Source: Pseudomonadota bacterium (GTDB lineage Bacteria; Pseudomonadota; Alphaproteobacteria; G022571365). From it: a stretch of 64,000 nt of DNA. The DNA lies in NCBI GenBank assembly GCA_022571365.1, contig JACZXZ010000008.1:2262-66261 (forward strand), read 5' to 3'. The notes beneath the pieces are model-generated. The model worked only from the letters and a program-made list of their open reading frames with translations, did not search any database and was not told the origin of the DNA. This document shows, in pieces, positions 2,960-55,854 of the stretch. The stretch's first letter is position 1. Every line of letters begins with the position of its first letter. The translations under genes were made by a program, and so were the position numbers.

Positions 2960-4198
2960 TCAGGCGGCGGCCAGGGCCTGGGCCAGGTCCTCCTTGATGT
3001 CCTCGACGTCCTCGAGGCCGACCGAAAGCCGCACCAGGGCGCCGGTGATGCCGAGATGCGCGCGTTCTTCCTCGCTCAGCCGCTGGTGCGTGGTCGTTGC
3101 CGGATGGGTGATCAAGCTCTTGGCGTCGCCCAGATTGTTCGAGATGTCGATGAGCTTGAGCGCGTTCAAGAAGCGGAAGGCACGCTTCTTGCCGCCGTCG
3201 ACCTCGAAGGACACGATGCTGCCGGCGTCCTTCATCTGCGCCTTGGCGAGGGCGTGCTGCGGGTGGTTCGGAAGGCCGGAGTAGATCACCCGGCGGATGC
3301 CCCGCTCGCCGCTCAGGAACGCGGCAATTTCGCCCGCCCCGGCGCAGTGGCGCGCGACCCTGAGCTCCAGCGTCTCCAAGCCTTTGAGCAGCAGCCAGGC
3401 GTTGAACGGGCTCAAGGCCGGGCCGGTGTGACGCAGGAAGGGCTGCAGCTCCTCCTCGATGAAGGTGGCGTCGGCCAGGATGGCGCCGCCCAGCGACCGG
3501 CCCTGGCCGTCGATGTGCTTGGTCGCCGAGTAGACGACGATGTCGGCGCCGTACTCCATCGGCAGCTGCAGCATCGGCGTGGCGAGCACGTTGTCGACCA
3601 CGAGCCGGGCGCCGGCGGCGTGGGCCAGCTCGGCGACGGCGGCGAGGTCGATGATCTCGAGCGTCGGGTTGGAGGGGCTCTCCAGGAAGACACAGGTGGT
3701 TTTCTCGCTGAGCGCTTCCCGCCACTGGTCCAGATCGGTGCCGTCGACCATGACCGACTCGATGCCGTAGCGGGGCAACAGCTCCGCGACAATGTACTGG
3801 CACGAGCCGAACAGCGCGCGGGACGAGACGATCCGGTCGCCGGCCTTGAGCTGGCACATCAGCGAGGCGAACACCGCGGCCATGCCGCTGGCGGTGGCGC
3901 GCGCGGCCTCGGCCCCCTCGATCAGGCACATGCGTTCCTCGAACATGGCCACGGTAGGGTTCGAGAAGCGGGAGTAGATGAAGCGTTCCGTCTCGCCCTT
4001 GAAGGCCGCCTCGGCTTGCTCCGCCGCCTCGTAGACGAAGCCCGAGGTGAGGAACAGGCCCTCGCATGTCTCCCGGAAGCTGGACCGCTTGAGGCCGCCG
4101 CGAACGAGCCGTGTGCGCAGGCGCCACGCCTGCGCCTCGCCGCCTTTGGCCGACTTTTCCCCGTCGGCCTTCCCGTCAGTTGAAGGGGTGTCTGCCAT
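2960..4198 (-). CDS. metZ: O-succinylhomoserine sulfhydrylase (Cys/Met-metabolism PLP enzyme)
   Basis: The ATG at 4198 is preceded by AGGAGG. Translation has the PLP-fold signatures (SATKHIDGQGRSLGG, FNAWLLLKGLETLELR, NLGDAKSLITHPATTTH). Confidence 0.85.
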   Translation of the reverse strand: MADTPSTDGKADGEKSAKGGEAQAWRLRTRLVRGGLKRSSFRETCEGLFLTSGFVYEAAEQAEAAFKGETERFIYSRFSNPTVAMFEERMCLIEGAEAARATASGMAAVFASLMCQLKAGDRIVSSRALFGSCQYIVAELLPRYGIESVMVDGTDLDQWREALSEKTTCVFLESPSNPTLEIIDLAAVAELAHAAGARLVVDNVLATPMLQLPMEYGADIVVYSATKHIDGQGRSLGGAILADATFIEEELQPFLRHTGPALSPFNAWLLLKGLETLELRVARHCAGAGEIAAFLSGERGIRRVIYSGLPNHPQHALAKAQMKDAGSIVSFEVDGGKKRAFRFLNALKLIDISNNLGDAKSLITHPATTTHQRLSEEERAHLGITGALVRLSVGLEDVEDIKEDLAQALAAA

Positions 4199-4254
4199 CC
4201 TCGCCTCCTGGTGCGCCGCGGCCCCGAGCCGCACTGCCGCCGCCGCCACAAAAA

Positions 4255-4278: not shown

Positions 4279-4300
4279 GCTCCATCGCGCTCCGACCTTT

Positions 4301-4353
4301 TAGCAGGTTGTTTTACGTGGCCGCAAGCCGGTCGGGGCAAATCGCCACGTAGG
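4301..4353 (-). ncRNA. Candidate SAM-II (metA-type) riboswitch in the metZ leader
   Basis: Minus-strand RNA GUGGCGAUUUGCCCCGACCGGCUUGCGGCCACGUAAAACAACCUGCUAAAAGG. It has a GUGGC/GCCAC stem, the GAUUUGC and GCUUGC elements and a 3' GCUAAAAGG tail that sequesters an SD-like AAAGG, all typical of the alphaproteobacterial SAM-II aptamer. It lies about 100 nt upstream of metZ. Confidence 0.5.
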
Positions 4354-4420
4354 CCCAGGGTGTAGTCGCTCGGGCCCGCCCTGTCAAGGAGCCGGGAGGG
4401 CCGCCTTCATGGGTCGGGCG

Positions 4421-5664: not shown

Positions 5665-5738
5665 GCGGGTGTAGCTCAGTGGCAGAGTAGGAGCTTCCCA
5701 AGCTCAAGACGGGGGTTCGATTCCCCTCACCCGCTCCA
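5665..5738 (+). tRNA. tRNA-Gly (anticodon CCC)
   Basis: Cloverleaf: acceptor GCGGGTG/CACCCGC, D-arm GCTC-AGTGGCA-GAGT, anticodon stem-loop GGAGC-TTCCCAA-GCTCA (U33, anticodon CCC, A37), T-arm GGGGG-TTCGATT-CCCCT, encoded CCA. Confidence 0.85.
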
Positions 5739-11483: not shown

Positions 11484-13196
11484 ATGCCGGACACCCAGAA
11501 GCTCTCCAAGGTCGAAGCCATAAAGGAAGGCAGCCGTTATCTCCGCGGCACGATCGTCGCGGATATGGCCAACGAGTCCACCCCCTTTCCGGAGGCGGAT
11601 TACCAGGTTCTGAAATTCCACGGCACCTACCAGCAATACGACCGGGACACGGCGACGGAGCGCAAGCAGCGCGGGCTCCAGAAAGAGTATCAGTGCATGG
11701 TCCGCGTGAAGATTCCCGGAGGACGGCTGACCGCCGACCAGTACCTGGCCGTGGATGCGCTGGTCGGCCGATACGCCAATGGCAGCCTGAGGATCACCAC
11801 CCGGCAGGGCTTCCAGCTTTACGGTGTCATCAAGGCCGACCTCAAGGCCACCATCGCCGACATCAACGCCACGCTGCTTACCACTCTGGGCGCCTGCGGC
11901 GATGTGGTCCGCAATTTGACCACCAACCCGGCTCCGATTCGCGATGCCGTTCACACGCGGCTGGAAGAGGACGCCCGCATGCTGGCCAGGGAACTCGCGC
12001 CCCGCACGCGGGCCTACCATGAGATCTGGATCGATGGCGAGAAGGTGGACACCGGCGAGGAGGACCATGAGCCCCTGTACGGCAGCACCTATCTTCCCCG
12101 CAAGTTCAAGATCGGCCTGTCGACGCCGGACGACAACGCGATCGACGTTTTGACCCACGATATCGGCATCATCGCGCTGTTCGAGGGCGAGCGGCTCACC
12201 GGCTACAACCTCGCTTTGGGCGGCGGATTCGGCATGACTCACAACAAGCCGAAGACCTATCCCCGGCTCGCCACGCCCATTGTGTTCGTCGAGCCCGATG
12301 ACCTGCTCCGAGCGGTGAAGGCCGTTATTGAATTACAGCGCGACCACGGTGACCGTTCCGACCGCAGGCACGCGCGACTCAAATATCTGGTCGACGACAA
12401 GGGGGTCGCCTGGATCAAGACGACGTTGGAGGACTATTTCGGGGCGCCGCTCGCGGATCCGCGTCCCATGGGCGAATTCAAGGTCGTGGATCACATGGGA
12501 TGGCACGCCCAGGGTGACGGCTTGTGGTATCTGGGTGTTCCGGTCTCCAGCGGCCGCATCGTCGACCGCAACGGCAGCAAGTTGCGCACCGCCCTGCGCA
12601 AGGTGTTCGAATCGCACCGGACCGATCCCATCCTGACCCCCAACCAGGACATCATTCTGAGCGACATTGCGCCGGATGACCGAGCTCCGATTGAGGCCCT
12701 TTTGCGCGACCACGGTGTTCCGTTCGCCGAGGACTGGTCGCCGGTCAAGCGGTGGGCCCTCGCCTGTCCGGCCCTGCCGACCTGCGGCCTGGCGTTGACC
12801 GAGGCCGAACGGGTCAAAGACTCGCTGATATCGGATATCGAACAGGCCCTTGCCCGCCACGGGCTGGCCGACGAACTCCTGAGCGTCCGGATCACCGGCT
12901 GCCCGAACGGCTGCGCCCGTCCTCATAACGGGGACATCGGCCTGGTCGGCCGCATGCCTGGCTACTACGTCCTTTATGTCGGCGGCGACTTCGCCGGCAC
13001 CCGGCTCAATACCAAGCTGTTGGACAAGGTCGCGCTCAAAGACATCGTCCCGACGCTGGAGCCCCTGTTCGCCTTCTTCGCCCGGGAGCGAAAGCCGGGA
13101 GAGGCCTTTGGCGACTTCTGCCACCGGCATGACCCGGAGGTGCTGCGCCAAGAGATCGAGCGGGCCGCGGCCCCCTCTGTGGCCGAGGTGGTGTGA
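11484..13196 (+). CDS. cysI: Assimilatory sulfite reductase hemoprotein (siroheme/Fe-S)
   Basis: 570 aa with the nitrite/sulfite reductase ferredoxin-like half-domains and Cys cluster (ACPALPTCGLA...TGCPNGCARP). An AT-rich promoter-like region lies upstream. No cysJ is adjacent. Confidence 0.85.
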   Translation: MPDTQKLSKVEAIKEGSRYLRGTIVADMANESTPFPEADYQVLKFHGTYQQYDRDTATERKQRGLQKEYQCMVRVKIPGGRLTADQYLAVDALVGRYANGSLRITTRQGFQLYGVIKADLKATIADINATLLTTLGACGDVVRNLTTNPAPIRDAVHTRLEEDARMLARELAPRTRAYHEIWIDGEKVDTGEEDHEPLYGSTYLPRKFKIGLSTPDDNAIDVLTHDIGIIALFEGERLTGYNLALGGGFGMTHNKPKTYPRLATPIVFVEPDDLLRAVKAVIELQRDHGDRSDRRHARLKYLVDDKGVAWIKTTLEDYFGAPLADPRPMGEFKVVDHMGWHAQGDGLWYLGVPVSSGRIVDRNGSKLRTALRKVFESHRTDPILTPNQDIILSDIAPDDRAPIEALLRDHGVPFAEDWSPVKRWALACPALPTCGLALTEAERVKDSLISDIEQALARHGLADELLSVRITGCPNGCARPHNGDIGLVGRMPGYYVLYVGGDFAGTRLNTKLLDKVALKDIVPTLEPLFAFFARERKPGEAFGDFCHRHDPEVLRQEIERAAAPSVAEVV

Positions 13197-13756
13197 TGTA
13201 TCCGATCACGCTCGACATCACTCGGCTGAAGATTGTGCTTGCCGGCGACGGCAGCGCCGCCGTCCGGCGTCTCGCCGGGTTGGATGCGGCCGGCGCGGGC
13301 GATGTCGTGGTGTTTGCGGAGCGGCTGGACGCCGCGCTGGTCGAGGCCGCGGGTTCCCGCCTGGTCCGGCGTCTGCCCACCGGCCAGGATTTTGTCGGGG
13401 TAAGCCTGCTCCTGGTCGCCGGGCTCGAGGAAGCCGCCGCCGCGCCGCTCGTTGCCATGGCCCGCGCCTTGGGCGTCCTGGTCAATGTGGAGGACCGCAA
13501 GCCGTGGTGTGACTTCCACGTGCCTTCGATCGTACGCCGCGGCGACTTGCAGATCGCGATCTCGACCTCGGGCCGCAGTCCCGGCCTGGCGCGTCGGCTT
13601 CGGCGTTTCCTCGAGTCCCTGTTCGTGCCCGGATGGGCGTCGCACCTCGACGAGCTCGCGGCCCGGCGGGAGCAATGGCGCGCGGAAGGCGCGGATCCCG
13701 CGGCCGTCAGCCGCCTGACCGACGATCTGATCGACCGGCGGGGCTGGCTCCGATGA
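13193..13756 (+). CDS. Siroheme synthase N-terminal-type protein (precorrin-2 dehydrogenase / sirohydrochlorin ferrochelatase)
   Basis: 187 aa. KIVLAGDGSAAVRRL is an NAD-binding motif and VNVEDRKPWCDFHVPSIVRRGDLQIAISTSGRSPGLARRLR resembles the CysG N-terminal domain. It lacks the methyltransferase domain. It overlaps both cysI and cysH. Confidence 0.7.
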   Translation: MMYPITLDITRLKIVLAGDGSAAVRRLAGLDAAGAGDVVVFAERLDAALVEAAGSRLVRRLPTGQDFVGVSLLLVAGLEEAAAAPLVAMARALGVLVNVEDRKPWCDFHVPSIVRRGDLQIAISTSGRSPGLARRLRRFLESLFVPGWASHLDELAARREQWRAEGADPAAVSRLTDDLIDRRGWLR

Positions 13757-34411: not shown

Positions 34412-34547
34412 ACTTTATAGTCTCGATAATCCTACTTTATAGTCTCGATAATCCTGGGCGCCTTGCGTGGAGACAGGTAGGAGACGAGTGATAGTTTCGA
34501 TAATCTCGGCCGCCTTGCGTGGCGTACAGGTAGGAGACGAGTGAGTG
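34412..34547. repeat. Compound tandem repeats overlapping the RBS and start of the CitE-like gene
   Basis: A 22-bp ACTTTATAGTCTCGATAATCCT occurs twice. A ~33-bp CGCCTTGCGTGGMGWACAGGTAGGAGACGAGTGA then occurs twice. The second copy supplies the AGGAGA Shine-Dalgarno of the gene; the first is a duplicate upstream. Confidence 0.7.
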
Positions 34548-34549
34548 TC

Positions 34550-35437
34550 ATGGCGGAGACCGTGCGCCCGCGCCGCAGTGTTCTCTATATGCCGGGATCG
34601 AACACCCGCGCCCTCGAGAAGGGCAAGACGCTTCCCGCCGACGCGCTGATCCTCGACCTCGAGGATGCGGTCACGCCCGACGCTAAGGCCGAGGCGCGCC
34701 GCCAGGTTTGCGCGGCGGTCAAGGCGGGCGGCTATGGCCGGCGAGAGGTCGTCGTCCGCGTCAACGGTCTCCATACCCCTTGGGGCCACGACGACTTGGT
34801 CCAGGTCTCAGAGGCGGGCCCGGATGCGGTCCTACTGCCCAAGCTCGTGAGTGTGGGCATGGTGCGCGAGGCCGGACGGTTGATGGAGCAGCACGGCGCG
34901 CCCGAGAATATGGCCCTCTGGTGCATGATGGAAACCCCGCTCGATGTCCTCCACGCCGAGGAAATCGCCTCCTCCAGCCCGCGTGTCGCCTGCCTGGTCG
35001 TGGGCACCTCGGACCTCACCAAGGATCTCCATGCCAGCCACACGGCCGAGCGCCTGCCGCTGTTGACCAGCATGGGGCTGTGCCTGCTGGCCGCCCGCGC
35101 CTACGGGCTCGCCATCCTCGACGGCGTCCATCTCGACCTCGCGGATGACGAAGGCTTCGCGCGCGCCTGCCGGCAAGGCGCCGAGCTCGGCTTCGACGGC
35201 AAGACGCTGATCCACCCCAAGACCATCGCGGTCGCCAACGAAGCCTTTGCGCCGTCGGTGGAAGACGTCGCTTGGTCACGCAGGATCATCGCCGCCCACG
35301 CCGAGGCTGCCGCCGAAGGCAAGGGCGTGGTCGTCGTCGACGGCAAGCTGGTCGAGGCCCTCCACGTCGAGGGTGCACGCCGCCTGGTCGCGCTCGCGGA
35401 AGCCATCGAAGAGCTGGAACAGGCGGCGTCCTCATGA
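34550..35437 (+). CDS. HpcH/HpaI-CitE family acyl-CoA lyase/thioesterase (malyl-CoA or citramalyl-CoA lyase / Mcl2-like)
   Basis: ~295 aa CitE-like. N-terminal RRSVLYMPGSN, LILDLEDAV and the DxxxxxxD metal motif region (MMETPL). It pairs with the downstream MaoC hydratase gene. Confidence 0.7.
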   Translation: MAETVRPRRSVLYMPGSNTRALEKGKTLPADALILDLEDAVTPDAKAEARRQVCAAVKAGGYGRREVVVRVNGLHTPWGHDDLVQVSEAGPDAVLLPKLVSVGMVREAGRLMEQHGAPENMALWCMMETPLDVLHAEEIASSSPRVACLVVGTSDLTKDLHASHTAERLPLLTSMGLCLLAARAYGLAILDGVHLDLADDEGFARACRQGAELGFDGKTLIHPKTIAVANEAFAPSVEDVAWSRRIIAAHAEAAAEGKGVVVVDGKLVEALHVEGARRLVALAEAIEELEQAASS

Positions 35438-35567
35438 CGGCTTTCTCCCGCGGCTTGATAAGGCGTCCCACGGCGGCCCGCCCGCCGGGAGGCGCCGGGC
35501 TGGGGATCGGGCGCGCGAACGGGGGAGTTGCCGCCGGGACGGCGCTTCATTTTTCCATGGCGACGGA

Positions 35568-36638
35568 ATGACCAAGGCCGGAATGACCAAGGCCGGTTCG
35601 GGAAACTTCTTCGAGGATTTCAGGCTCGGCCAGGAAATCCGCCACGCCACCCCGCGCACGGTAACCCGCGGCGACGTCGCCCTGTACACGGGGCTCTATG
35701 GCCCGCGCTTCGCGATCCAGTCCTCCGACGCCTTCGCCCGCGCCGTCGGCCTGCCCGCGGCGCCGGTCGACGACCTTCTGGTGTTCCATATCGTCTTCGG
35801 CAAGACGGTGCCGGACATTTCCCTGAACTCCGTCGCCAACCTGGGCTACGCGGGCTGCCGCTTCGGCGCTCGGGTCTTCCCGGGCGACACGTTGAGCGCC
35901 ACCTCGCGGGTGATCGGCCTCAAGGAGAACGCCAATCGCAAGACCGGCATCGTCCATGTCCGTTCGACCGGCCTCAACCAGGACGGTGCGACGGTGGTGG
36001 ACTACATCCGCTGGGTCATGGTGCGCAAACGCGACCCGGAGGCGCCGGCGCCGGAGGCGGTGGCGCCCGAACTCGAGGAAGCGGTCGCGGCCGAGGACCT
36101 CCAGGTGCCCGAGGGCTTGGATCTTTCGGCTTACGATACCGGCCTGGCTGGCGCGCCCCATCTGTGGGACGACTACCAGGCCGGCGAGACCATCGACCAC
36201 GTCGACGGCATCACCATCGAAGAAGCCGAGCACATGATGGCGACCAGGCTGTACCAGAACACCGCCCGGGTCCATTTCAACCAGCATGCGGCGAAGGAGG
36301 GCCGCTTCGGTCGGCGCATCGTCTATGGCGGCCATATCATGAGCCTCGCCCGAACGCTCAGCTTCAACGGCCTGGCCAACGCCTGCTTCATTGCCGCGAT
36401 CAACGGCGGACGCCACCTCGCCCCCACCTTCGCCGGCGATACGATCTACGCCTGGACTGAAGTGTTGGACAAGATCGCGCTTGCCGGCCGCGGCGACATC
36501 GGGGCCCTCAGGTTGCGCACCGTCGCCACCAAGGACCACCCCTGCCCCGACTTCCCGCTCAAGGGCGAGGACGGCAAGGACCACCCGCAGGTGGTGCTCG
36601 CGCTCGACTACACGGTGCTCATGAAGCGGCGCGGGTGA
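35568..36638 (+). CDS. MaoC-family double hot-dog enoyl-CoA hydratase (mesaconyl-CoA / itaconyl-CoA hydratase-like)
   Basis: ~356 aa with two hot-dog halves. The start region contains a 15-bp tandem duplication that yields MTKAGMTKAG. The upstream 107 codons of the reported ORF are junk. Confidence 0.7.
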   Translation: MTKAGMTKAGSGNFFEDFRLGQEIRHATPRTVTRGDVALYTGLYGPRFAIQSSDAFARAVGLPAAPVDDLLVFHIVFGKTVPDISLNSVANLGYAGCRFGARVFPGDTLSATSRVIGLKENANRKTGIVHVRSTGLNQDGATVVDYIRWVMVRKRDPEAPAPEAVAPELEEAVAAEDLQVPEGLDLSAYDTGLAGAPHLWDDYQAGETIDHVDGITIEEAEHMMATRLYQNTARVHFNQHAAKEGRFGRRIVYGGHIMSLARTLSFNGLANACFIAAINGGRHLAPTFAGDTIYAWTEVLDKIALAGRGDIGALRLRTVATKDHPCPDFPLKGEDGKDHPQVVLALDYTVLMKRRG

Positions 36639-41913: not shown

Positions 41914-43287
<1,374 letters not shown>

Positions 43288-43515: not shown

Positions 43516-44685
43516 ATGGACATCCACGAGTACCAGGCGAAGCAGATTCTTGCCAAATACGGCATCAACGTGCCCGTCGGCGACATCGCGTATCAAACCC
43601 ATGAAGCCGAACGCGTGGCGAAGTGGCTTGACGAAGACGTCATGGTCGTCAAGGCGCAGATCCACGCCGGCGACCGCGGCAAGGCCGGCGGCGTGAAGAT
43701 CGTCCGCTCGGTCCAGGAAGCGGTCGAGGCGGCCGATGACATGTTCGGCATGAGACTCGTCACGCCCCAGACCGGTCCCCAAGGCGAAAAGGTCCACCGG
43801 GTCTACATCGAGGCCGGGTGCGATATCGCTGACGAGCTTTATTTCTGCGTGCTCAACGGCCGCGATGCCAACGGCATCACCGTGATCGCCTCGACCGAAG
43901 GCGGCATGGAGATCGAAGAAGTCGCGGAGAAGACGCCGGAGAAGATCCTCAGGATCAACCTGGCGCCGGGGGTCGAGCTGCAGCCCCATCACGCCCGCAA
44001 GCTCTCCTACGACCTCGGGCTCAAGGGGAAGACGGCGCGGGCCGCAAGGAAGCTCATGATGAACGTGTTCCGGGCTTTCTATGACCTGGATGCCACCCTG
44101 ATCGAGATCAACCCACTGGCTCTGACCAATGCCGGCGACATCGTCGCCATCGACTGCAAGATGAGCTTCGACGACGACGCCCTCTACCGCCACAAGGACA
44201 TTGAAGAGCTCAGGGACGATGCCGAGATCGACCCCTTGGAGCTGGAGGCCGCGCGGCACGACCTCAACTACGTCAAGCTCACCGGCAATATCGGCCTCAT
44301 GGTCAACGGCGCCGGGCTGTCCATGGCGACCATGGACATCATCAAGCAATTTGGCGGCAAGCCGGCCAATTTCCTCGACGTGAGCGGCGCGGCCACGCCC
44401 GAGCGCGTGGCCGCGGCCTTCAAGCTCATTTATTCGGATCCCGACGTGAAGGGTATTCTAGTCAACATCTTCGGCGGCATGATGCGTTGCGATTCCATCG
44501 CCGAAGGTCTGGTAAGCGCGGCCCGCGAGGTGGGCTTGGGCAAGCCTCTGGTGGTGCGCCTGGAAGGCACCAATGTGAAATTGGGCCGGAAAATCCTTGA
44601 AGGGTCTGGCTTGCCGATCGAGTCTGTCAAGGGCATGGCGGAGGCTGCCGAGAAGATCGTCAATGCGGTGAAGAAAGCGGCGTAG
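43516..44685 (+). CDS. SucC-like NDP-forming acyl-CoA synthetase beta subunit, divergent paralog (malate thiokinase-like or other dicarboxylate-CoA ligase)
   Basis: ATP-grasp beta subunit with deviations from canonical SucC at conserved positions: [11 protein letters not shown] rather than [18 protein letters not shown] rather than [20 protein letters not shown] rather than DVGGGA. About two-thirds identity to the downstream copy. Confidence 0.75.
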
Positions 44686-45561
44686 ATGGCGGTTCTGATC
44701 ACGCCTGAGACCAAGGTCATATGTCAGGGTTTGACGGGTTCCCAGGGCACCTTCCATTCCGAGCAGGCGATCAAGTACGGCACCAACATGGTCGGCGGGG
44801 TGACGCCGGAAAAGGGTGCCACCAGCCATCTCGATCTCCCCGTTTTCGACACCGTGGCCGAGGCCGTGGCCAAGACGGGGGCCAACGCCTCGGGCGTCTT
44901 CGTACCCCCGGAGTTTGCGGCCGACGCCATCCTCGAAGCCGTGGAGGCGGGTCTGGATCTCGTGGTGTGCATCACCGACGGCATTCCCGTGCGCGACATG
45001 CAGCGGGTCAAGCGCGAAATGCACGGCCGCAAGACCCGGCTTGTCGGCCCCAACTGCTCCGGCGTCATCACCCCCGGGGTGGGCAAGATTGGAATCATGC
45101 CCGGCTATGTCCATTCGCCGGGCAAGATAGGAGTCATCTCGCGCTCGGGAACGCTCAGCTACGAGACCGCTATGCAGACCTCGAACTTGGGTCTCGGCCA
45201 ATCCACCGTCATCGGCATCGGCGGCGACCTCGTGAGCGGCACCAACTTCGTGGACGCCCTGGAGCTTTTCCTCGACGATCCCGATACCGCGGGCATCATC
45301 ATGATCGGTGAGATCGGCGGCACCATCGAGATCGAGGCCGCCGAGTTCGTCAAGTCCTGGAATAGGAAGAAGCCGGTCGCCGCCTTCATCGCGGGCGCGG
45401 CAGCGCCACCGGGACGCCGCCTGGGCCATGCCGGCGCCATCGTCTCCAGCGGCATGGAGACTGCCGAGGCGAAAAAGGAGGCGCTGCGGAGCGCGGGCGT
45501 CCGCGTCGCCGAGTCGATCGTCGAGATCGGGGAGAGCATGCGCGACGCCCTGAAAGGCTGA
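44686..45561 (+). CDS. SucD-like acyl-CoA synthetase alpha subunit, divergent paralog
   Basis: CoA-binding domain and catalytic His loop ([13 protein letters not shown]) retained, but many substitutions against the canonical SucD ([36 protein letters not shown]). Confidence 0.75.
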
Positions 45562-45781
45562 AGGCAAGCGTCCCGGTCGCCGCGTCGTGATCCTTTCACG
45601 GGGAGGCGAGGGGGCGGCAGCCTTCATTCGTTTGAAAGGCCGCTTTGGGGAGCAATTGAGGATAGCCGAAATGCGCGTCAAGGAGCGGCGGGACCGGCGG
45701 TGATCAGGACAGGCGCTCGCTTCGCGGCGGGTCTCGCGGCGGTCGTAGGGATCGGGGTTTGAACGACAGGAAACGGAATCG

Positions 45782-46306
45782 ATGGCCACCAACACGCTGA
45801 TTTCCTTCATCGGCCCCGATCGTCCCGGTTTGATCTCGGAGGTCAGTGGCTTCCTGTTCGAAAAAGGCGGGAATCTCGGCGATGTCACCTTCGCGGTGCT
45901 CGGCGAAGGCGCTGAGCTCACGATGATCTACGAAGTACCGAAGGACCTCACCGTCGAGGGTCTCGAGAAGGAGTTGAAGCAGCTTCCCAGGCTCCAGGAC
46001 GGCGAGGTCAAGGTCACCCTGTTCAGGCTCAAATCGGAACACGGCCCGTCCGGTCGCATCACCCACCGCATCATCCTATCGGGCGGCGATCGGCCCGGTC
46101 TGGTCGCGAAAATCACCAAAGTTCTCGACCAGCACGGCGCCAACATCGTGCGCATGAACGCGGAGAAACTGACCGGCACCGCCGGCGACCAATATATCTG
46201 CCGCTTCGCCGTCTCGATGCGCGAGCGGAGGGCTCCTGCCTGTCTTGCCGCGATCGTCAACATCGCCGGTGAGCTCAAGCTCACCTTCCGTTACGAGACG
46301 GCCTGA
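45782..46306 (+). CDS. Tandem ACT-domain regulatory protein (GcvR-like)
   Basis: 174 aa with two ACT-type folds: ISFIGPDRPGLISEVSGFLFEKGGNL... and IILSGGDRPGLVAKITKVLDQHGANI... It sits between the two sucCD-type operons. Confidence 0.7.
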   Translation: MATNTLISFIGPDRPGLISEVSGFLFEKGGNLGDVTFAVLGEGAELTMIYEVPKDLTVEGLEKELKQLPRLQDGEVKVTLFRLKSEHGPSGRITHRIILSGGDRPGLVAKITKVLDQHGANIVRMNAEKLTGTAGDQYICRFAVSMRERRAPACLAAIVNIAGELKLTFRYETA

Positions 46307-46519
46307 GGACACGGGGGCCTTCCGCCACCCCGGCTTCCCGGCCCACCCCTGGCGCGGGGCGCCAGGGGCCGCGGATACGCGTTCCGCCTCCCTTCATCCC
46401 TTCGTGACGGGAGTTTCCCCCATGTGATATTAACCTGACGACTTTTTTGGGGATTGGGTTGGGGGCGCGAGGCGTCCGATTCGCTGAGCCGGTCCCTATG
46501 ACAGCCGGGACGAGGCCGG

Positions 46520-47689
46520 ATGAACGTTCACGAGTATCAGGCCAAACAGCTTCTCGCCAAGTACGGAGTCACCGTCCCGCGCGGCGGCGTCGCCTATACG
46601 CCGGCGGAGGCCGAGAAAGTGGCGCGCGATCTGGGCGGCCCGGGATGGGTCGTCAAGGCTCAGATTCACGCGGGCGGGCGCGGCAAGGCCGGGGGCATCA
46701 AGGTCGCGGGCAGTCTGGAGGAGGTGCGCGAATGCGCCCGCGGCATGCTCGGCATGACCCTCGTCACCCACCAGACCGGCCCGGCGGGCAAGGAGGTCAA
46801 GCGCGTCTATATCGAGAAGGGCTTGGACATTGAGCGCGAGCTCTATCTCGCCATTGTGGTTGACTGCGCCGCGCGCCGCGTCGCCGTCATGGCCATGAGC
46901 GAGGGCGGCGTGGAGATCGAGGAGGTCGCGGCGGGCAACCCCGAGAAAATCCTTAAAGCGACCATCGATCCCGCCATCGGCTTGGAGCCGTTTTATGCCC
47001 GCAAGCTCGCCTTCGGCCTTGGCCTCGAAGGCGGGCAGGTCAACGCCGCGGTCGGGTTCGTGGGCGCCATGTATGAGGCTTTCGTCGGCCTGGATGCCAG
47101 CCTCATCGAGATCAACCCGCTGGCGGTCACCGGAGCCGGCGAGCTGGTCGCGCTCGACGCCAAGATGAGCTTCGACGACGCCGCGCTCTTCCGCCACAAG
47201 GACATCGAGGAGCTCAGGGACGAGGACGAGGAGGACCGGACCGAGCTCGAGGCGACCCGCCACGACCTCAACTACGTCAAGCTCACCGGCAATATCGGCT
47301 GCATGGTAAACGGCGCCGGCCTGGCTATGGCGACCATGGACATCATCAAGCTCCATGGGGGCGAGCCGGCCAACTTCCTCGACGTTGGCGGCGGCGCCAC
47401 CAAGGAGCGGGTCACCATCGCGTTCAAGCTGATTCTCTCCGATTCCAATGTCGAGGGCATCCTGGTCAATATCTTCGGCGGCATCATGCGCTGCGACGTC
47501 ATCGCCGAGGGCATTGTCGGCGCGGCCCGCGAGGTGGGCTTGAGCAAGCCGCTGGTGGTCCGCCTGGAAGGCACCAATGTCGAGCTGGGCGAGAAAATCC
47601 TTAAAGAGTCCGGCCTGCCGATCACCTCGGCCGGGGATCTGGCGGACGCCGCCGAGAAGGTGGTGAGCGCCGTCCGGGAGGCGGCGTAG
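46520..47689 (+). CDS. sucC: Succinyl-CoA synthetase beta subunit (canonical copy)
   Basis: Canonical motifs [48 protein letters not shown]. Confidence 0.9.
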
Positions 47690-48565
47690 GTGGCCATTTT
47701 CGTCAGCGCTGAGACGCGGGTGCTCTGCCAGGGCTTCACCGGCGCCCAGGGCACCTTTCACTCCGAACAGACGATCGCCTACGGCACCAAGATGGTCGGC
47801 GGCGTCACCCCTGGCAAAGGCGGCGCCACCCACCTCGGCCTGCCGGTGTTCAACACCATGGCCGAGGCGGTCGCCGTCACCGGCGCGAACGCCACCGCGA
47901 TCTACGTGCCGCCGCCCTCGGCGGCAGACGCCATCTTGGAGGCGATCGACGCTGGGATCGAGCTTGCCGTCTGCATCACCGAGGGCATCCCCGTGCTCGA
48001 CATGGTGCGGGTCCGGCGCGCGCTCCAAGGCTCCGGCACACGGCTCATCGGGCCCAACTGTCCCGGGGTCATCACGCCGGAGGAGTGCAAGATCGGCATC
48101 ATGCCGGGCCATATCCATACCCGCGGCCGGATCGGCATCGTCTCGCGCTCCGGCACGCTCACCTATGAGGCGGTGGCCCAGACCACCGCCGCCGGGCTCG
48201 GCCAGTCGACCTGCGTGGGGATCGGCGGCGACCCGGTGGGCGGCACCGACTTCATCGACTGCCTGGAGGCGTTCCTGGCCGACGACGAGACCGAAGGCAT
48301 CATCATGATCGGCGAGATCGGCGGAAGCGCCGAGGAGGAGGCCGCCGAGTTCATCAAGCGGGCCAAGACCAGGAAGCCGGTGGTCGGTTTTATCGCCGGG
48401 GTGACCGCACCGCCGGGTCGTCGCATGGGCCATGCCGGCGCCATCATCTCGGGCGGCAAGGGCGGCGCCGGGGACAAGATCGAGGCTTTGCGGAGCGCCG
48501 GAGTCGTCGTCACCGAGTCGCCGGCGCGCCTCGGCGGCACCATGTTAGAAGTATTGAAGGACTGA
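47690..48565 (+). CDS. sucD: Succinyl-CoA synthetase alpha subunit (canonical copy)
   Basis: Canonical [66 protein letters not shown]. Confidence 0.9.
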
Positions 48566-48669
48566 GCCAGAGTTACTATCAATAGAGTACTGTCAATAAA
48601 GAACGGGCGCGGCCCTAAACCGCGCCGGAGGAAAGAACGGGCGCGGCCCTAAACCGCGCCGGAGGAGTC

Positions 48670-52962: not shown

Positions 52963-53165
52963 CTGTGCTCGGCCGCTCCAGGCCCGAGCCACGGGCCGGC
53001 GCGGCTTGAGAGCCTATTTGAGGGATCCGGCCCGGTCGCGCGCCCGCACCGGGAGGCGCCCGCCCGCTGTTCTTAAAACCAACCTGTAAGATGGTGGCGG
53101 CCGTCCCGTCCCTATGACAGGGGGGAAGACCCGACGACTACCCAGAGCCAGAGCCCTTTGTCTTT

Positions 53166-53194
53166 GATTCTATTCTTGGCACGGCCTCCGCCTC
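53166..53194. repeat. Downstream copy of the 29-bp direct repeat flanking the AT-rich Hint-domain cassette (partner at 53713-53741)
   Basis: gattctattcttggcacggcctccgcctc versus gattctattcttggcacggcgtccggctc (27/29 identical). On the minus strand both encode AVPRIES. Confidence 0.8.
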
Positions 53195-53248
53195 GCTGGA
53201 CTTCGTCGCCCCGGGCGAGCCGCTGTTTTCAACCTCCTCCGCCCTTAA

Positions 53249-53290
53249 TTATGCACCAAAAACACTTCCTTCTCATCCTTATCAGAAGAT
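53249..53290 (-). repeat. Truncated duplicate of the last 13 codons plus stop of the Hint-domain gene (SDKDEKEVFLVHN*)
   Basis: Minus-strand tctgataaggatgagaaggaagtgtttttggtgcataattaa duplicates 53296-53337, which encodes SDEDEKEVFLVHN then KIQ*. Confidence 0.8.
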
Positions 53291-53291
53291 C

Positions 53292-54500
53292 TTATTGTAT
53301 CTTATTGTGCACCAAAAACACTTCCTTCTCATCCTCATCAGAAACAAAATAATTATGTGTTCCGTTGACTGTTAGGTTGAAGACTTGTACTGCTTTCTCT
53401 ACTTTCTTTATACTTTTGATTTTGATGTGTGAGTTTCCAAGTACTTTGTCTCCAACTTTTAGCTCCGCTGCTTCTTTCCAAACATCATTACCAACAGCAA
53501 ATGGATGCGTACCAGTAACTTTAAGATTATCGTTAAGCAGCAAATATGAAGCTACTTCTATAGTAAATAATCTTGTTACTTTGCTGTTAACTTTTTTATT
53601 TGTATTAAAATCAAAGCTTTGTACTTCTTCTCCTTCTTCAATTTCTGCAATAGGCTTGAAGGTGTTGTCTGCCATTAAGACTTTGGTGTCAGCAGTAAAG
53701 CAACCTGGTGCCGATTCTATTCTTGGCACGGCGTCCGGCTCCTCCACCACCGGAGGCTCCTTGATGAGATCCGTGATCGGCGGGAAGAACGCACCAGTCA
53801 CGCCAGACTCATCATAGAATTTCCCCCAAGTACGCTGTTCCCACAGCGTAGTCGGGAGGGGAATGGTTGTTGGATAGAGCCCTTCATAAATCTCCCGCGC
53901 GATGTCGGGCGGCGCCGACGCCGCCGGCGTCGGCGCCGCGTCGGGCGCGGCCACGGTGGAGGCAAGCCCCGGGGTGTCGATGTTCACCGTCACGCCCTCG
54001 AGGTTGGAGATTGCGAGCGCGCCCGCGCGCAGGATCACGGTCGTCGCCCCGTCCGGCGCCACGAACAAGTCGAAGATCGTGCCGCGGACGCCGATGATGG
54101 CGACCGGCGTCCTGATCTCGTAGGACGCCGACGCCAGCGAGCCCGAGACGAACCGGAAGACGCCGACGGTCGCCGACATCACGACCTTGCTCACATTGGG
54201 ATCGGGATCGAACACGAAGGTATCGAGGACCAGCCGCGATTCCGGGCCGATCGACATCGTCGTCTCGTCCAGGAACAGGAGCTGGGTCGAGCTCTCCACT
54301 TCGGTCTCGATGGCTTCGTTGTGGAACAGCCGGTCGCCGATCACCAGCGTTCTCTCCTGCTCGGCCAGCGTGCCATGGACCAGGTTCACCACGGCCGCGG
54401 TGACGCCGATGCTCTCCTGCGCGGCGGCGCTCGCCGTCCAACCCGCGAGTATGAGGCCCGCGGCAAGCGCATATCGGACGGTCATGATCAGAACTCCCAT
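53292..54500 (-). CDS. Secreted FecR-like domain protein with a C-terminal Hint / bacterial-intein-like (BIL) domain
   Basis: Signal peptide (MTVRYALAAGLILAGWTASAAAQE), a FecR-type beta region (VAIIGVRGTIFDLF), a Pro/Ala/Thr linker, then a 133-aa Hint domain. The Hint domain begins at Cys (CFTADTKVLMADN), has block B TGTHPF (TxxH) and ends VFLVHN, then KIQ-stop. Its coding segment (~53249-53700) is AT-rich and Lys/Asn/Ile-rich, unlike the rest of the gene. Confidence 0.8.
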   Translation of the reverse strand: MGVLIMTVRYALAAGLILAGWTASAAAQESIGVTAAVVNLVHGTLAEQERTLVIGDRLFHNEAIETEVESSTQLLFLDETTMSIGPESRLVLDTFVFDPDPNVSKVVMSATVGVFRFVSGSLASASYEIRTPVAIIGVRGTIFDLFVAPDGATTVILRAGALAISNLEGVTVNIDTPGLASTVAAPDAAPTPAASAPPDIAREIYEGLYPTTIPLPTTLWEQRTWGKFYDESGVTGAFFPPITDLIKEPPVVEEPDAVPRIESAPGCFTADTKVLMADNTFKPIAEIEEGEEVQSFDFNTNKKVNSKVTRLFTIEVASYLLLNDNLKVTGTHPFAVGNDVWKEAAELKVGDKVLGNSHIKIKSIKKVEKAVQVFNLTVNGTHNYFVSDEDEKEVFLVHNKIQ

Positions 54501-55604
54501 GCGACGCTCACCCCGAAGGAGTGGTTCTTATATCTCTTTTGGGGATCGTTTGAGTAGTTGTTCTCGAAGAAATAGCGCAAGACCAGGGTCACCTCCGGCC
54601 GCAGAAACTCCGAAACCACGACTTTGGCGCCCGGGGCGTACCGCCTGTCCTCTCGGTCCTCCACCTCATCCGGGTCGTGACCTATGTAGTCCCGGTACCA
54701 TAGAACTAACTCGGGACCAGCCAGGACATTGTCGTAAACCGGGTAAAGGTACTCGGCCTGGGCGCTGATCTGGTGATAGCGATTGCGATACTTACCGGTA
54801 TCCCCACCACCCCTGGCGCCATTGAAGATGTAACGGGGCATTGTTATGGACAGCACATCTTGGGTGGCGGCGGCGGCCAGGTTGGTCCATTGGAACCTCG
54901 GGGCCACCTCGAATACCACCGCGTCGCGTCCGGTTCTCTCGGTGTTGTAGTCCTCGAGGGCAAGCCGGAGGTCGAGCGTCCGGAGAATGCCGGGGCCGAG
55001 CTTCTCGAAGTTGACGACGACGCCGGCCGAATAGAACAGGAACTCGCGGTCAAGCGCCGCGTAGGTCAGGGCGACAGCGGGGCGGACCTGCCACCGATCG
55101 GGCAGCAGGAGAAGCGGTCCCGATTGCGCGCTGACCAGGTACAGATCGGCCGCCTGGAAAGCTACATGGGCGTCCCCGTACAGCTGCGCGGTGGTCCGGA
55201 TCCGCCGGTCGCCGAGCACGCGCTCGTCCCGCACGATTATCGCCGCCGACCCGGAGTGATCGCCAAAGGTGCCGACTTCCTCCTCGCGGTGCGGCGCGTT
55301 GGTATCGTACCGGTAGCCGAGGATGGCCACATACGCCGTCCGGCTGGGCTCCAACAGCCTGCGAATGCGCGCCGCCTCGGCCAAGGCCGTCGCGTTCTCC
55401 GGGTCCTGCAGCAAAAGCCGCTCGTAGGTGGCGAGCGCCTTCTCCAGCTCGCCGCGCTCCTCGGCAAGCCGGGCGTAAAGCAGATTGAGCTCCACGTCGC
55501 TCGGGTTTTGCAGGAGCCGCTGGAAGACGGATTCGATGTCCTCTGCGCCCTGGGCCGAGCCGATCAGCAAGCCAAATGCCAGAAAGACGGCGGCTGCGCG
55601 CATC
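54488..55604 (-). CDS. TPR-containing beta-barrel outer membrane protein (DUF560/Slam-like architecture), operonic with the FecR-Hint gene
   Basis: Signal peptide MRAAAVFLAFGLLIGSAQG, ~70 aa of TPR-like helices (LYARLAEERGELEKALATYERLLLQDPENATALAEAA), then ~280 aa of alternating amphipathic strands ending in the OMP signature ...FGVSVAWEF. The stop overlaps the downstream gene start. Confidence 0.6.
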
Positions 55605-55854
55605 AAAATCAAAGGCCTTCCCCCCTGTTGACTGTTTGACTGTCGCGCTCGCCCGGAGGCGCGAGCCTGTCCGACCTTTGCCCGCGGACGCACGAAACCC
55701 AGACGATATCGTCTGGGATGGGTCCGGCGCAAGAAAATCATTCCGCAAGAAAATTTATGGCGCGTAAACGATTGACGGCGCGTAAGCCCAAGGTCAAGGG
55801 CTACCGGCGCCATTAATCGGAATTAATACAATTAATACAATAACATAATACAAA

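Follow-up and report, generated by a model that had tools for sequence, protein, structure and literature searches.

The question raised by this locus is why an alphaproteobacterium should keep two complete succinyl-CoA synthetase (SCS) gene pairs head to tail, with a small gene encoding a tandem-ACT-domain protein between them. The stretch analysed, hereafter the window, comprises 64,000 nucleotides of GC-rich (G+C fraction 0.66) alphaproteobacterial metagenomic sequence (contig JACZXZ010000008.1 of assembly GCA_022571365.1), and the genes concerned follow one another in the order mdh, sucC', sucD', tandem-ACT, sucC, sucD, sucA, sucB (Table 1). The upstream pair, SucC'D', is the divergent one; the downstream pair is referred to as canonical. 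The answer that we favour, and to which we would give about an even chance, is that SucC'D' is itself a genuine SCS, a second isoenzyme that has an ACT-domain protein as its partner and stands beside a canonical copy coupled to 2-oxoglutarate dehydrogenase (OGDH).

A preliminary description of this DNA, made from the sequence alone, had reported two complete beta/alpha pairs separated by a tandem-ACT gene, and open reading frames (ORFs) were found for all of them at the positions it gave. The motifs quoted there, including the GHAGA loop and a variant loop at beta residues 49–59 (corresponding to the change G53D), could all be read in the translations. The downstream pair is canonical as described, with GGRGK, C261, A269, GGG and GIM in its SucC. 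The arrangement is also unusual: among the matches listed, which are loci around canonical sucC from 80 species-representative genomes, neither an ACT homologue nor a second beta gene was seen in any (0/80). These reference loci are of the canonical type only, with at most 64% identity to SucC', and leave the clade of SucC' described below unsampled.

SucC' and canonical SucC are identical at 250 of 389 positions, and SucD' and canonical SucD at 186 of 290, which is 64% for each subunit without a gap and agrees with the initial estimate of about two-thirds. When compared with the 80 reference loci, canonical SucC is 59–75% identical to their SucC proteins as against 53–64% for SucC', and canonical SucD is 60–83% identical to their SucD proteins as against 55–69% for SucD'. 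In a bootstrapped neighbour-joining tree of 211 beta sequences, SucC' falls in a separate clade of 120 members with a bootstrap value of 89, rising to 99 when the sequences L018 and P0081 are added. We refer to this group as the star clade and to its members as star-type SucC and SucD. The window's own canonical SucC lies apart from it, inside the canonical alphaproteobacterial clade. The alpha tree is concordant, with a bootstrap value of 100 for star-type SucD, or 85 with L018 included. Between genomes that hold both pairs, the star-type subunits are 70–78% (beta) and 80–81% (alpha) identical, compared with 67–70% and 76–77% for the canonical subunits. Conservation of the star pair across genomes thus equals or exceeds that of the canonical one, and both pairs are therefore old, vertically co-inherited and under purifying selection. 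Star-type SucCD is a distinct, old subfamily of SucCD. A recent segmental duplication was considered and rejected, given the 64% identity of both subunits, the separate clades and the co-divergence across genomes. The possibility raised beforehand, that the upstream pair would group inside orthodox SucCD clades with conserved substrate-binding residues, was borne out in one half: the pair stands outside the canonical clade, yet the clade to which it belongs is a coherent one of SucCD proteins, in which the direct contacts to succinate are preserved.

The residue signatures of the star clade, set out below, recur in about 80 more distant sequences (61–66% identical) from AT-rich marine metagenome-assembled genomes (MAGs) and Tara contigs, on contigs of 1.1–1.6 Mb. 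Labels in related clusters include 'Pelagibacteraceae bacterium TMED124', 'Rickettsiales bacterium' and 'Alphaproteobacteria bacterium', and the carriers as a whole span GC-rich soil and sediment MAGs and abundant AT-rich marine alphaproteobacteria.

The gene order around the star pair is conserved as well. The module mdh, star-type sucC, star-type sucD, ACT was found in all retrieved star-clade contigs (L082, L083, L084, L085, L086, L093, L094, L143 and L144), the ACT gene being scored in MAG contigs that reach past sucD and mdh in relatives with enough sequence. A scan made with the ACT protein alone gave the same picture, with mdh and the star-type pair directly before the ACT gene in 36 of the 39 metagenomic loci with enough upstream DNA. 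This linkage spans G+C fractions of 0.28–0.69. The gap between star-type sucD and ACT is 8–75 bp in metagenomic loci, 2 bp in L093 and a 4-bp overlap in L085. The canonical sucCD genes, with sucA, follow the ACT gene only in GC-rich loci (0.59–0.68). No canonical sucCD was seen within 5–10 kb in about 28 AT-rich marine loci (0.28–0.36), nor after ACT in those loci of G+C fraction 0.51–0.58 that extend past it, including L084, L085 and L094. In L093 the gene after ACT is xerC-like. L082 and L083 have a gene of the phage-integrase family downstream of lpd, in the same orientation, and the copy in L082 is 43% identical to that of L093. Because a xerC-like gene follows in each case, the star-only loci resemble the two-unit locus minus sucCD-sucAB-lpd. 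In L144 a gene for an NYN-domain protein (a putative RNase; 12881–13504) is inserted between ACT and canonical sucC; this insertion marks a unit boundary and so assigns the ACT gene to the upstream unit. That the ACT gene is tied to the upstream pair is upheld by synteny kept across lineages over the whole G+C range.

Three irregularities were seen in these loci. In L103 an ACT gene with the FRYETA tail described below (456–1492) follows a squalene/phytoene-synthase-like ORF and not star-type sucD, the sole linkage exception among genes with this type of tail; the contig is only 1.5 kb long, and rearrangement or chimeric assembly is possible. The star-type sucD of L086 (11170–12045) is split into 187 and 86 aa, and several genes of L083 (6054–13704) are split as well. 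We take the splits to be assembly frameshifts and not pseudogenes, because both contigs are long-read.

To define what sets the star pair apart, signature columns were read column by column from the alignment as residues common to the 120 star sequences; our alpha numbering differs from that of the literature by one residue. The star-type SucC signature comprises E40, G120, C214, L261, S269, A/S290-G-A292 (against GGG), M322 (GMM against GIV or GIM), N326 and K343. That of star-type SucD comprises G70, D98, G133, S158, A162, A233, S255, E258 and I278. In all, the clade-wide substitutions number about 20 in the beta and 11 in the alpha subunit, and they cluster near catalytic site I. The preliminary description had stated that the upstream pair differs at normally invariant positions. 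The differences are real, but C261L, A269S, GGG to A/S-G-A, the Ser to Thr change in GEIGGT and alpha T158S are clade-wide.

Despite these changes, most of the features expected of a succinate-CoA ligase are in place. Over the whole protein, both SucC' and SucD' score above the SucC and SucD equivalog cut-offs (NF001913 and NF004230), and SucC' matches E. coli SucC in the PDB with E = 1e-118 over residues 1–386. The PGYVH motif of SucD' retains the second His, which corresponds to His142-alpha, reportedly the 'facilitative' residue of Luo and Nishimura; at this position other star members have Cys, and MtkB, the alpha subunit of malate thiokinase, has Tyr. The roles of the catalytic residues of SCS are known from the E. 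coli structures, and they have also been set out in print (PMC10342173). SucC'D' carries the set of catalytic residues: His246-alpha in GHAGA, Glu208-alpha in GEIGG, Glu197-beta in (I/L)EINPL, Cys123-alpha in NC(P/S)G, Lys46-beta and Asp213-beta. In pig SCS (5CAE), succinate is contacted by an alpha Tyr (pig Y167), the backbone amides of GIV and a loop Gly (PMC11489063). The Tyr is retained in SucD' (SGTLSYE) and the middle Gly of the S-G-A loop in SucC', and in the GMM motif the backbone donors are kept while side chains alone are changed. Because the His loop, both Glu residues, the Lys and Asp, the Cys, the Tyr and the backbone-donating loops are retained, SucC'D' is probably a working succinate-CoA ligase. 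Complete genes and retained catalytic residues likewise point to the catalytic competence of both pairs that had been proposed at the outset.

Several observations weigh against reading SucC'D' as a second genuine SCS with an ACT partner. The signature changes around catalytic site I (beta 261, 269, 290, 292, 322 and 326; alpha 158, 162 and 254) may have shifted or broadened acyl specificity. Seven of the 11 alpha deviations specific to the star clade fall at sites where MtkB deviates too (hypergeometric p about 1e-3), a statistic that is inflated by site-rate heterogeneity. Position 53 of the beta subunit is Gly in at least 97% of the 211 aligned SucC/MtkA sequences and Asp in the window species alone. 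The spacer between sucD' and ACT is 220 bp in the window, compared with at most 75 bp elsewhere. Homologues of the ACT protein, 46–51% identical, stand alone in cultured Rhodospirillales (Terasakiella, Magnetospirillum), not beside sucCD. Finally, that the star pair would serve as the housekeeping SCS of star-only genomes is drawn from the 10 kb on either side of the gene.

The first two of these observations bear on the proposal that SucC'D', and the whole star subfamily with it, would be an acid-CoA ligase whose acyl specificity has shifted or broadened, for example to L-malate, itaconate, mesaconate, methylsuccinate or another C4/C5 dicarboxylate. We regard this as unlikely, although the positions of the changes speak for it. 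The beta substitutions A269S (in the first turn of the 'power-helix' motif), GGG to A/S-G-A and GIV to GMM lie in or next to catalytic site I, alpha T158S and V162A flank the succinate-binding Tyr, and G254S and G257E are just past the His loop. Four of the seven alpha deviations shared with MtkB are to the same residue. Moreover, few residues are needed to switch substrate in related enzymes, as in HpfYZ, where GIV is GIN and the Tyr is His (PMC11489063). The overlap between star-type beta and MtkA sites, in comparison, is not enriched (3 of 21, p = 0.55). Together, the MtkB site overlap and the clustering of the beta signatures at catalytic site I leave a weak residual hint that the substrate pocket of the star pair may be reshaped.

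The specific candidates put forward in the preliminary description, and with them the idea that the variant residues mark a newly altered specificity, are not supported. One was that the upstream pair is malate-thiokinase-like. Against the MtkA model NF010647 (cut-off 604 bits), SucC' scores 508 bits, below both the cut-off and the 563.6 bits of canonical SucC, so that the upstream pair is further from MtkA than the canonical pair. When compared with four annotated MtkAB references in serine-cycle clusters (L087, L088, L091 and L092), the star pair shares 1 of 18 MtkA-specific and 3 of 26 MtkB-specific residues. It is without beta A320 and N323 (FAGIN), alpha G158 and the 3-aa RY(R/P) insertion; Y143 also belongs to the MtkB-specific list. 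The MtkA references, for their part, carry canonical residues at the star-signature beta positions. Serine-cycle genes were not seen around the star pair: in the window and in every star locus, sdhCDAB/nadAC/mdh precede the pair and ACT follows it. SucC'D' is not MtkAB.

The other candidate was an itaconate or C5-dicarboxylate ligase, on the grounds that CitE-family and MaoC-type genes lie upstream of the sdh operon. The genes are there, about 8 kb away and past sdhCDAB, but their products fall short of the itaconate-pathway models. The CitE-like protein scores 162.9 bits against the RipC/Ccl model (cut-off 375), and the MaoC protein, which has the double-hotdog mesaconyl-CoA hydratase architecture of PF19315, scores 108.5 bits against the RipB/Ich model (cut-off 340). 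Neither L082 nor L144 keeps the CitE gene at that position. In favour of a C4/C5 substrate, the window, L082, L093 and L144 each have a mesaconyl-CoA-hydratase-type gene upstream of sdhC. Both neighbours look like ethylmalonyl-CoA-type enzymes. Beyond these models, several points tell against a changed acyl substrate: the distal-carboxylate-binding Tyr and the middle loop Gly are retained, the context is that of the tricarboxylic acid (TCA) cycle (sdhCDAB, mdh) and not of the serine cycle or itaconate degradation, and in many streamlined marine genomes no sucCD other than that of the star module was seen at the mdh locus.

The PF19315 gene is itself a recurrent feature of these clusters, at 229–1347 in L082, 1–848 in L093 and 256–1443 in L144. 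It lies directly before sdhC in L093 and about 0.8–1 kb before it in the window, L082 and L144, in lineages with the star module that span G+C fractions of 0.31–0.69. The conserved placement suggests that an ethylmalonyl-CoA-type pathway is linked to the TCA gene cluster.

The change at position 53 and the enlarged spacer raise the possibility that the upstream pair is decaying in this species, crippled by G53D in the phosphate-binding loop and redundant beside the canonical pair. Of the variant residues pointed out beforehand, only G53D (GGRGK to GDRGK) is private to the window species, star relatives having GGRGK or GARGK. In total, SucC'D' has five private changes at near-invariant positions (beta G53D and N221D; alpha G45A, I142V and P182L), compared with none or one in L082 and L083. 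The wider record makes decay very unlikely in our view. A Methylobacterium MtkA and the sequences P0026 and P0028 tolerate Ala at position 53, and the canonical SucC of the same genome likewise has four private changes. The frames of sucC', sucD' and ACT are intact, with normal G+C content at third codon positions. A second strain (L001), 99.55% identical in DNA from mdh to ACT, has all three genes intact and shares the GAC (Asp) codon at position 53. Between the two strains there are no non-synonymous changes in sucC' and no changes at all in ACT, and coding sites are about four times less divergent than spacers, a ratio that is no more than indicative since it comes from only 19 substitutions. 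Asn221, conserved in at least 97% of the 211 sequences, is lost in both beta subunits of the window, as N221D in SucC' (codon 44176–44178) and as N221A in canonical SucC (47180–47182).

It is also conceivable that SucC'D' acts on the same acyl substrate with a different nucleotide preference or direction, for example accepting GTP and forming succinyl-CoA while the other isoenzyme is ATP-linked and catabolic, as with G-SCS and A-SCS of animals. Such a role would account for two full isoenzymes under equal constraint in one genome. The star-conserved acidic residue E40 (D39-E40-D41 in the window) adjoins position 42, which is Gly in canonical alphaproteobacterial proteins and which Hamblin et al. 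(PMC2440562) list as the first of their 'gatekeeper' positions; the same paper states a link between GTP specificity and succinyl-CoA formation; in the ATP-grasp domain, the star clade has G120 where the canonical proteins have a conserved Arg. However, position 20 is Pro and position 42 uncharged in both paralogues, and the gatekeeper rule failed in Plasmodium SCS (PMC7931218). We consider a nucleotide or directional difference unlikely, but it is compatible with, and not opposed to, a second genuine SCS.

The ACT protein has a confidently predicted tandem-ACT fold. It matches the Pfam families ACT, ACT_6 and ACT_4, and its AlphaFold2 (AF2) model (pLDDT, the per-residue confidence measure, 92.8) contains two beta-alpha-beta-beta-alpha-beta ACT units. 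In Foldseek comparisons it comes closest to 2NYI, to the ACT tandem of SerB2, which binds serine, and to 1U8S, a putative GcvR, with template-modelling (TM) scores of 0.65–0.74 to 2NYI and 1U8S (0.65 for 1U8S). The protein had been called GcvR-like, which is apt for the tandem-ACT fold but not for orthology, given 24.1 bits against the GcvR equivalog NF008612 (cut-off 267). A ligand loop of the Gly-x-Asp-x-x-Gly type is present, with G101, D103 and G106 invariant across 25–34 homologues. It is a small family, in which 35 clusters reach E of at most 1e-30 among 1.84 billion representatives. Within it, the subtype linked to star-type sucD has a nearly invariant C-terminus, ...L(T/S)(F/L)RYET(A/S), whereas unlinked homologues end otherwise. 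Every linked gene of known context that could be read to its 3' end has this tail (two further loci are cut off there), at G+C fractions of 0.28–0.69, and one lineage of G+C fraction 0.56–0.58 (L109, L110 and L113) has the variant ...FRYEAT.

Because homologues of 46–51% identity stand alone, away from sucCD, the ACT family is not intrinsically an SCS subunit. A general role of ACT proteins as SCS subunits was likewise rejected, on account of these homologues and of the canonical reference loci, where no ACT gene was seen. A 463-aa 'fusion' match (P0419) and other long matches were discarded as chimeric or mis-called, being without an SCS domain. In a literature search we found no link between ACT domains and SCS or sucCD, and nothing relevant on SCS paralogues in Alphaproteobacteria.

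The locus holds two SCS operon units that differ in ancestry and stand head to tail, mdh-sucC'-sucD'-ACT followed by an ordinary alphaproteobacterial sucCD-sucAB. Taking a second genuine SCS as the working explanation, SucC'D' would be a nucleoside diphosphate (NDP)-forming succinate-CoA ligase with the normal phosphohistidine mechanism, acting on succinate and succinyl-CoA. The tandem-ACT protein would be a ligand-binding partner, probably sensing an amino acid, and may modulate SucC'D' through protein–protein contact, possibly by way of its C-terminal FRYET(A/S) tail. The work could then be divided such that the canonical pair drains the succinyl-CoA made by OGDH, while the ACT-linked pair carries out a regulated interconversion of succinate and succinyl-CoA independent of OGDH. 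A bolder version, which we put forward tentatively and think somewhat unlikely, is that the ACT protein is a dedicated third, allosteric subunit of star-type SucCD that docks through the FRYET(A/S) tail, forming the first ligand-gated SCS, with glycine and serine as candidate ligands. This enzyme would be the sole SCS in streamlined marine alphaproteobacteria and would stand beside an unregulated, OGDH-coupled copy in the window lineage. If so, glycine or serine sensing would tie the supply of succinyl-CoA to 5-aminolevulinate (ALA) and haem synthesis or to amino-acid status.

SCS is usually treated as a single, uniform orthologue of the TCA cycle, and PGAP and JGI label all the proteins discussed here succinate-CoA ligase. 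The star clade is nevertheless a coherent, old SCS subfamily in which the surroundings of the catalytic site are remodelled and an ACT companion is conserved, present in very abundant ocean alphaproteobacteria and in the GC-rich lineage of the window. Should the ACT protein regulate this enzyme, metabolites would directly control the succinate/succinyl-CoA node of these organisms, which feeds the TCA cycle, the biosynthesis of haem, lysine and methionine, and the ethylmalonyl-CoA and propionate pathway output. A lineage with both isoenzymes in tandem offers a natural system in which to ask what the second is for. The case also carries a caution, in that clade-wide signatures can be misread as lineage-specific neofunctionalization.

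Table 1. Genes of the tandem SCS locus and the CitE- and MaoC-type genes upstream, in coordinates of the window.
Gene	Product	Position	Strand	Support
CitE/HpcH gene	CitE/HpcH-type protein, upstream of sdhCDAB	34541-35437		
MaoC-type gene	MaoC/mesaconyl-CoA-hydratase type (PF19315), upstream of sdhCDAB	35247-36638		
mdh	Malate dehydrogenase, 359 aa	42208-43287	+	NF004863 447.5 bits (cut-off 283); TIGR01763 399 bits
sucC' (star type)	Beta subunit of the divergent pair, 389 aa	43516-44685	+	NF001913 535.8 bits (cut-off 370)
sucD' (star type)	Alpha subunit of the divergent pair, 291 aa	44686-45561	+	NF004230 424.1 bits (cut-off 336)
Tandem-ACT gene	174 aa, C-terminus ...LTFRYETA	45782-46306	+	Pfam ACT_6, ACT, ACT_4
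sucC	Canonical beta subunit, 389 aa, first gene of the sucCD-sucAB unit	46520-47689	+	NF001913 576.1 bits
sucD	Canonical alpha subunit, 291 aa	47690-48565	+	NF004230 457.8 bits
sucA	2-oxoglutarate dehydrogenase E1, 958 aa	48670-51546	+	ORF; same-position orthologues in L082, L086, L144
sucB	E2 dihydrolipoamide succinyltransferase, 445 aa	51625-52962	+	Pfam 2-oxoacid_dh, Biotin_lipoyl, E3_binding

The remainder of the locus shows some further features. The 3' end of mdh (43160–43287) encodes some 40 additional aa at the C-terminus, past the Ldh_1_C domain, which are basic and have many Lys, Ala, Arg and Pro residues; long mdh genes (334–344 aa) are likewise present in the relatives L082, L143 and L144. 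In the sucD-sucA spacer there are two identical 21-nt GC-rich hairpins, GGCGCGGTTTAGGGCCGCGCC (minus strand), at 48606–48626 and 48640–48660, 34 bp apart, which resemble a small repeated palindromic element. The sucA orthologues in L082, L086 and L144 have the domains E1_dh, Transket_pyr and OxoGdeHyase_C. Unlike in L082, L083, L086 and L144, lpd does not follow sucB in the window (52963–55813). Instead there is a stretch of lower G+C fraction (0.59) with genes for a FecR and pretoxin-HINT protein (53292–54500, minus strand) and a TPR protein (54488–55813, minus strand), and then cobT and cobS. Promoter, terminator and Rfam scans of the cluster gave nothing informative. Elsewhere in the window, an alphaproteobacterial S-adenosylmethionine (SAM) riboswitch (RF00521, 66 bits; 4280–4358, minus strand) lies directly upstream of a gene for a pyridoxal phosphate (PLP) enzyme of Cys/Met metabolism (2960–4249, minus strand), and a tRNA-Gly(CCC) gene (5665–5738, plus strand) is the sole tRNA gene.

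Among characterized systems, the E. coli type of SucCD (PDB 1SCU, 2SCU and 1CQI) is the obvious reference for the star pair, which has the same two-subunit architecture, the same lengths, no insertions or deletions and the same mdh/sdh context. The star subunits are 50% (beta) and 58% (alpha) identical to those of E. coli and 53–69% identical to canonical alphaproteobacterial proteins, and the star module ends with the ACT gene and not, as canonical SucCD loci do, with sucAB. In animals, A-SCS and G-SCS (SUCLA2 and SUCLG2 sharing SUCLG1) likewise provide two SCS isoforms per cell, presumably with different roles, whereas in the window both subunits are duplicated and tandem-encoded. The mitochondrial SCS beta subunits have canonical GGG and GIV motifs, as in the pig sequence. 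To our knowledge, no ACT partner has been described for the animal isoenzymes. For the ACT protein, the nearest parallels are the stand-alone regulatory subunits IlvN and IlvH and the beta subunit of aspartokinase. Like these, it is small, consists of two ACT domains without a DNA-binding domain and is encoded directly after catalytic subunits, although its fold matches to the regulatory subunits of acetohydroxyacid synthase (AHAS) and aspartokinase are weaker than those to 2NYI and 1U8S.

Two further groups of enzymes illustrate how SucCD homologues diverge. MtkAB is also a SucCD homologue that coexists with canonical SucCD in alphaproteobacteria, and MtkB and star-type SucD deviate at several of the same alpha sites (D98, M112, A162 and A232). 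The MtkAB references L087 and L091, however, have serine-cycle neighbours (sga, hpr, glyA, ppc and mcl), and the star pair has none. In the sulfoacetate-CoA ligase SauCD and the 3-sulfopropionate-CoA ligase HpfYZ, a few residues at the Tyr and GIV positions shift the substrate (PMC10413351, PMC11489063). Those enzymes replace the Tyr by His or add a polar residue (GIN) and are found in the context of sulfonate metabolism, whereas the star pair keeps the Tyr, has a hydrophobic GMM and lies in a TCA context.

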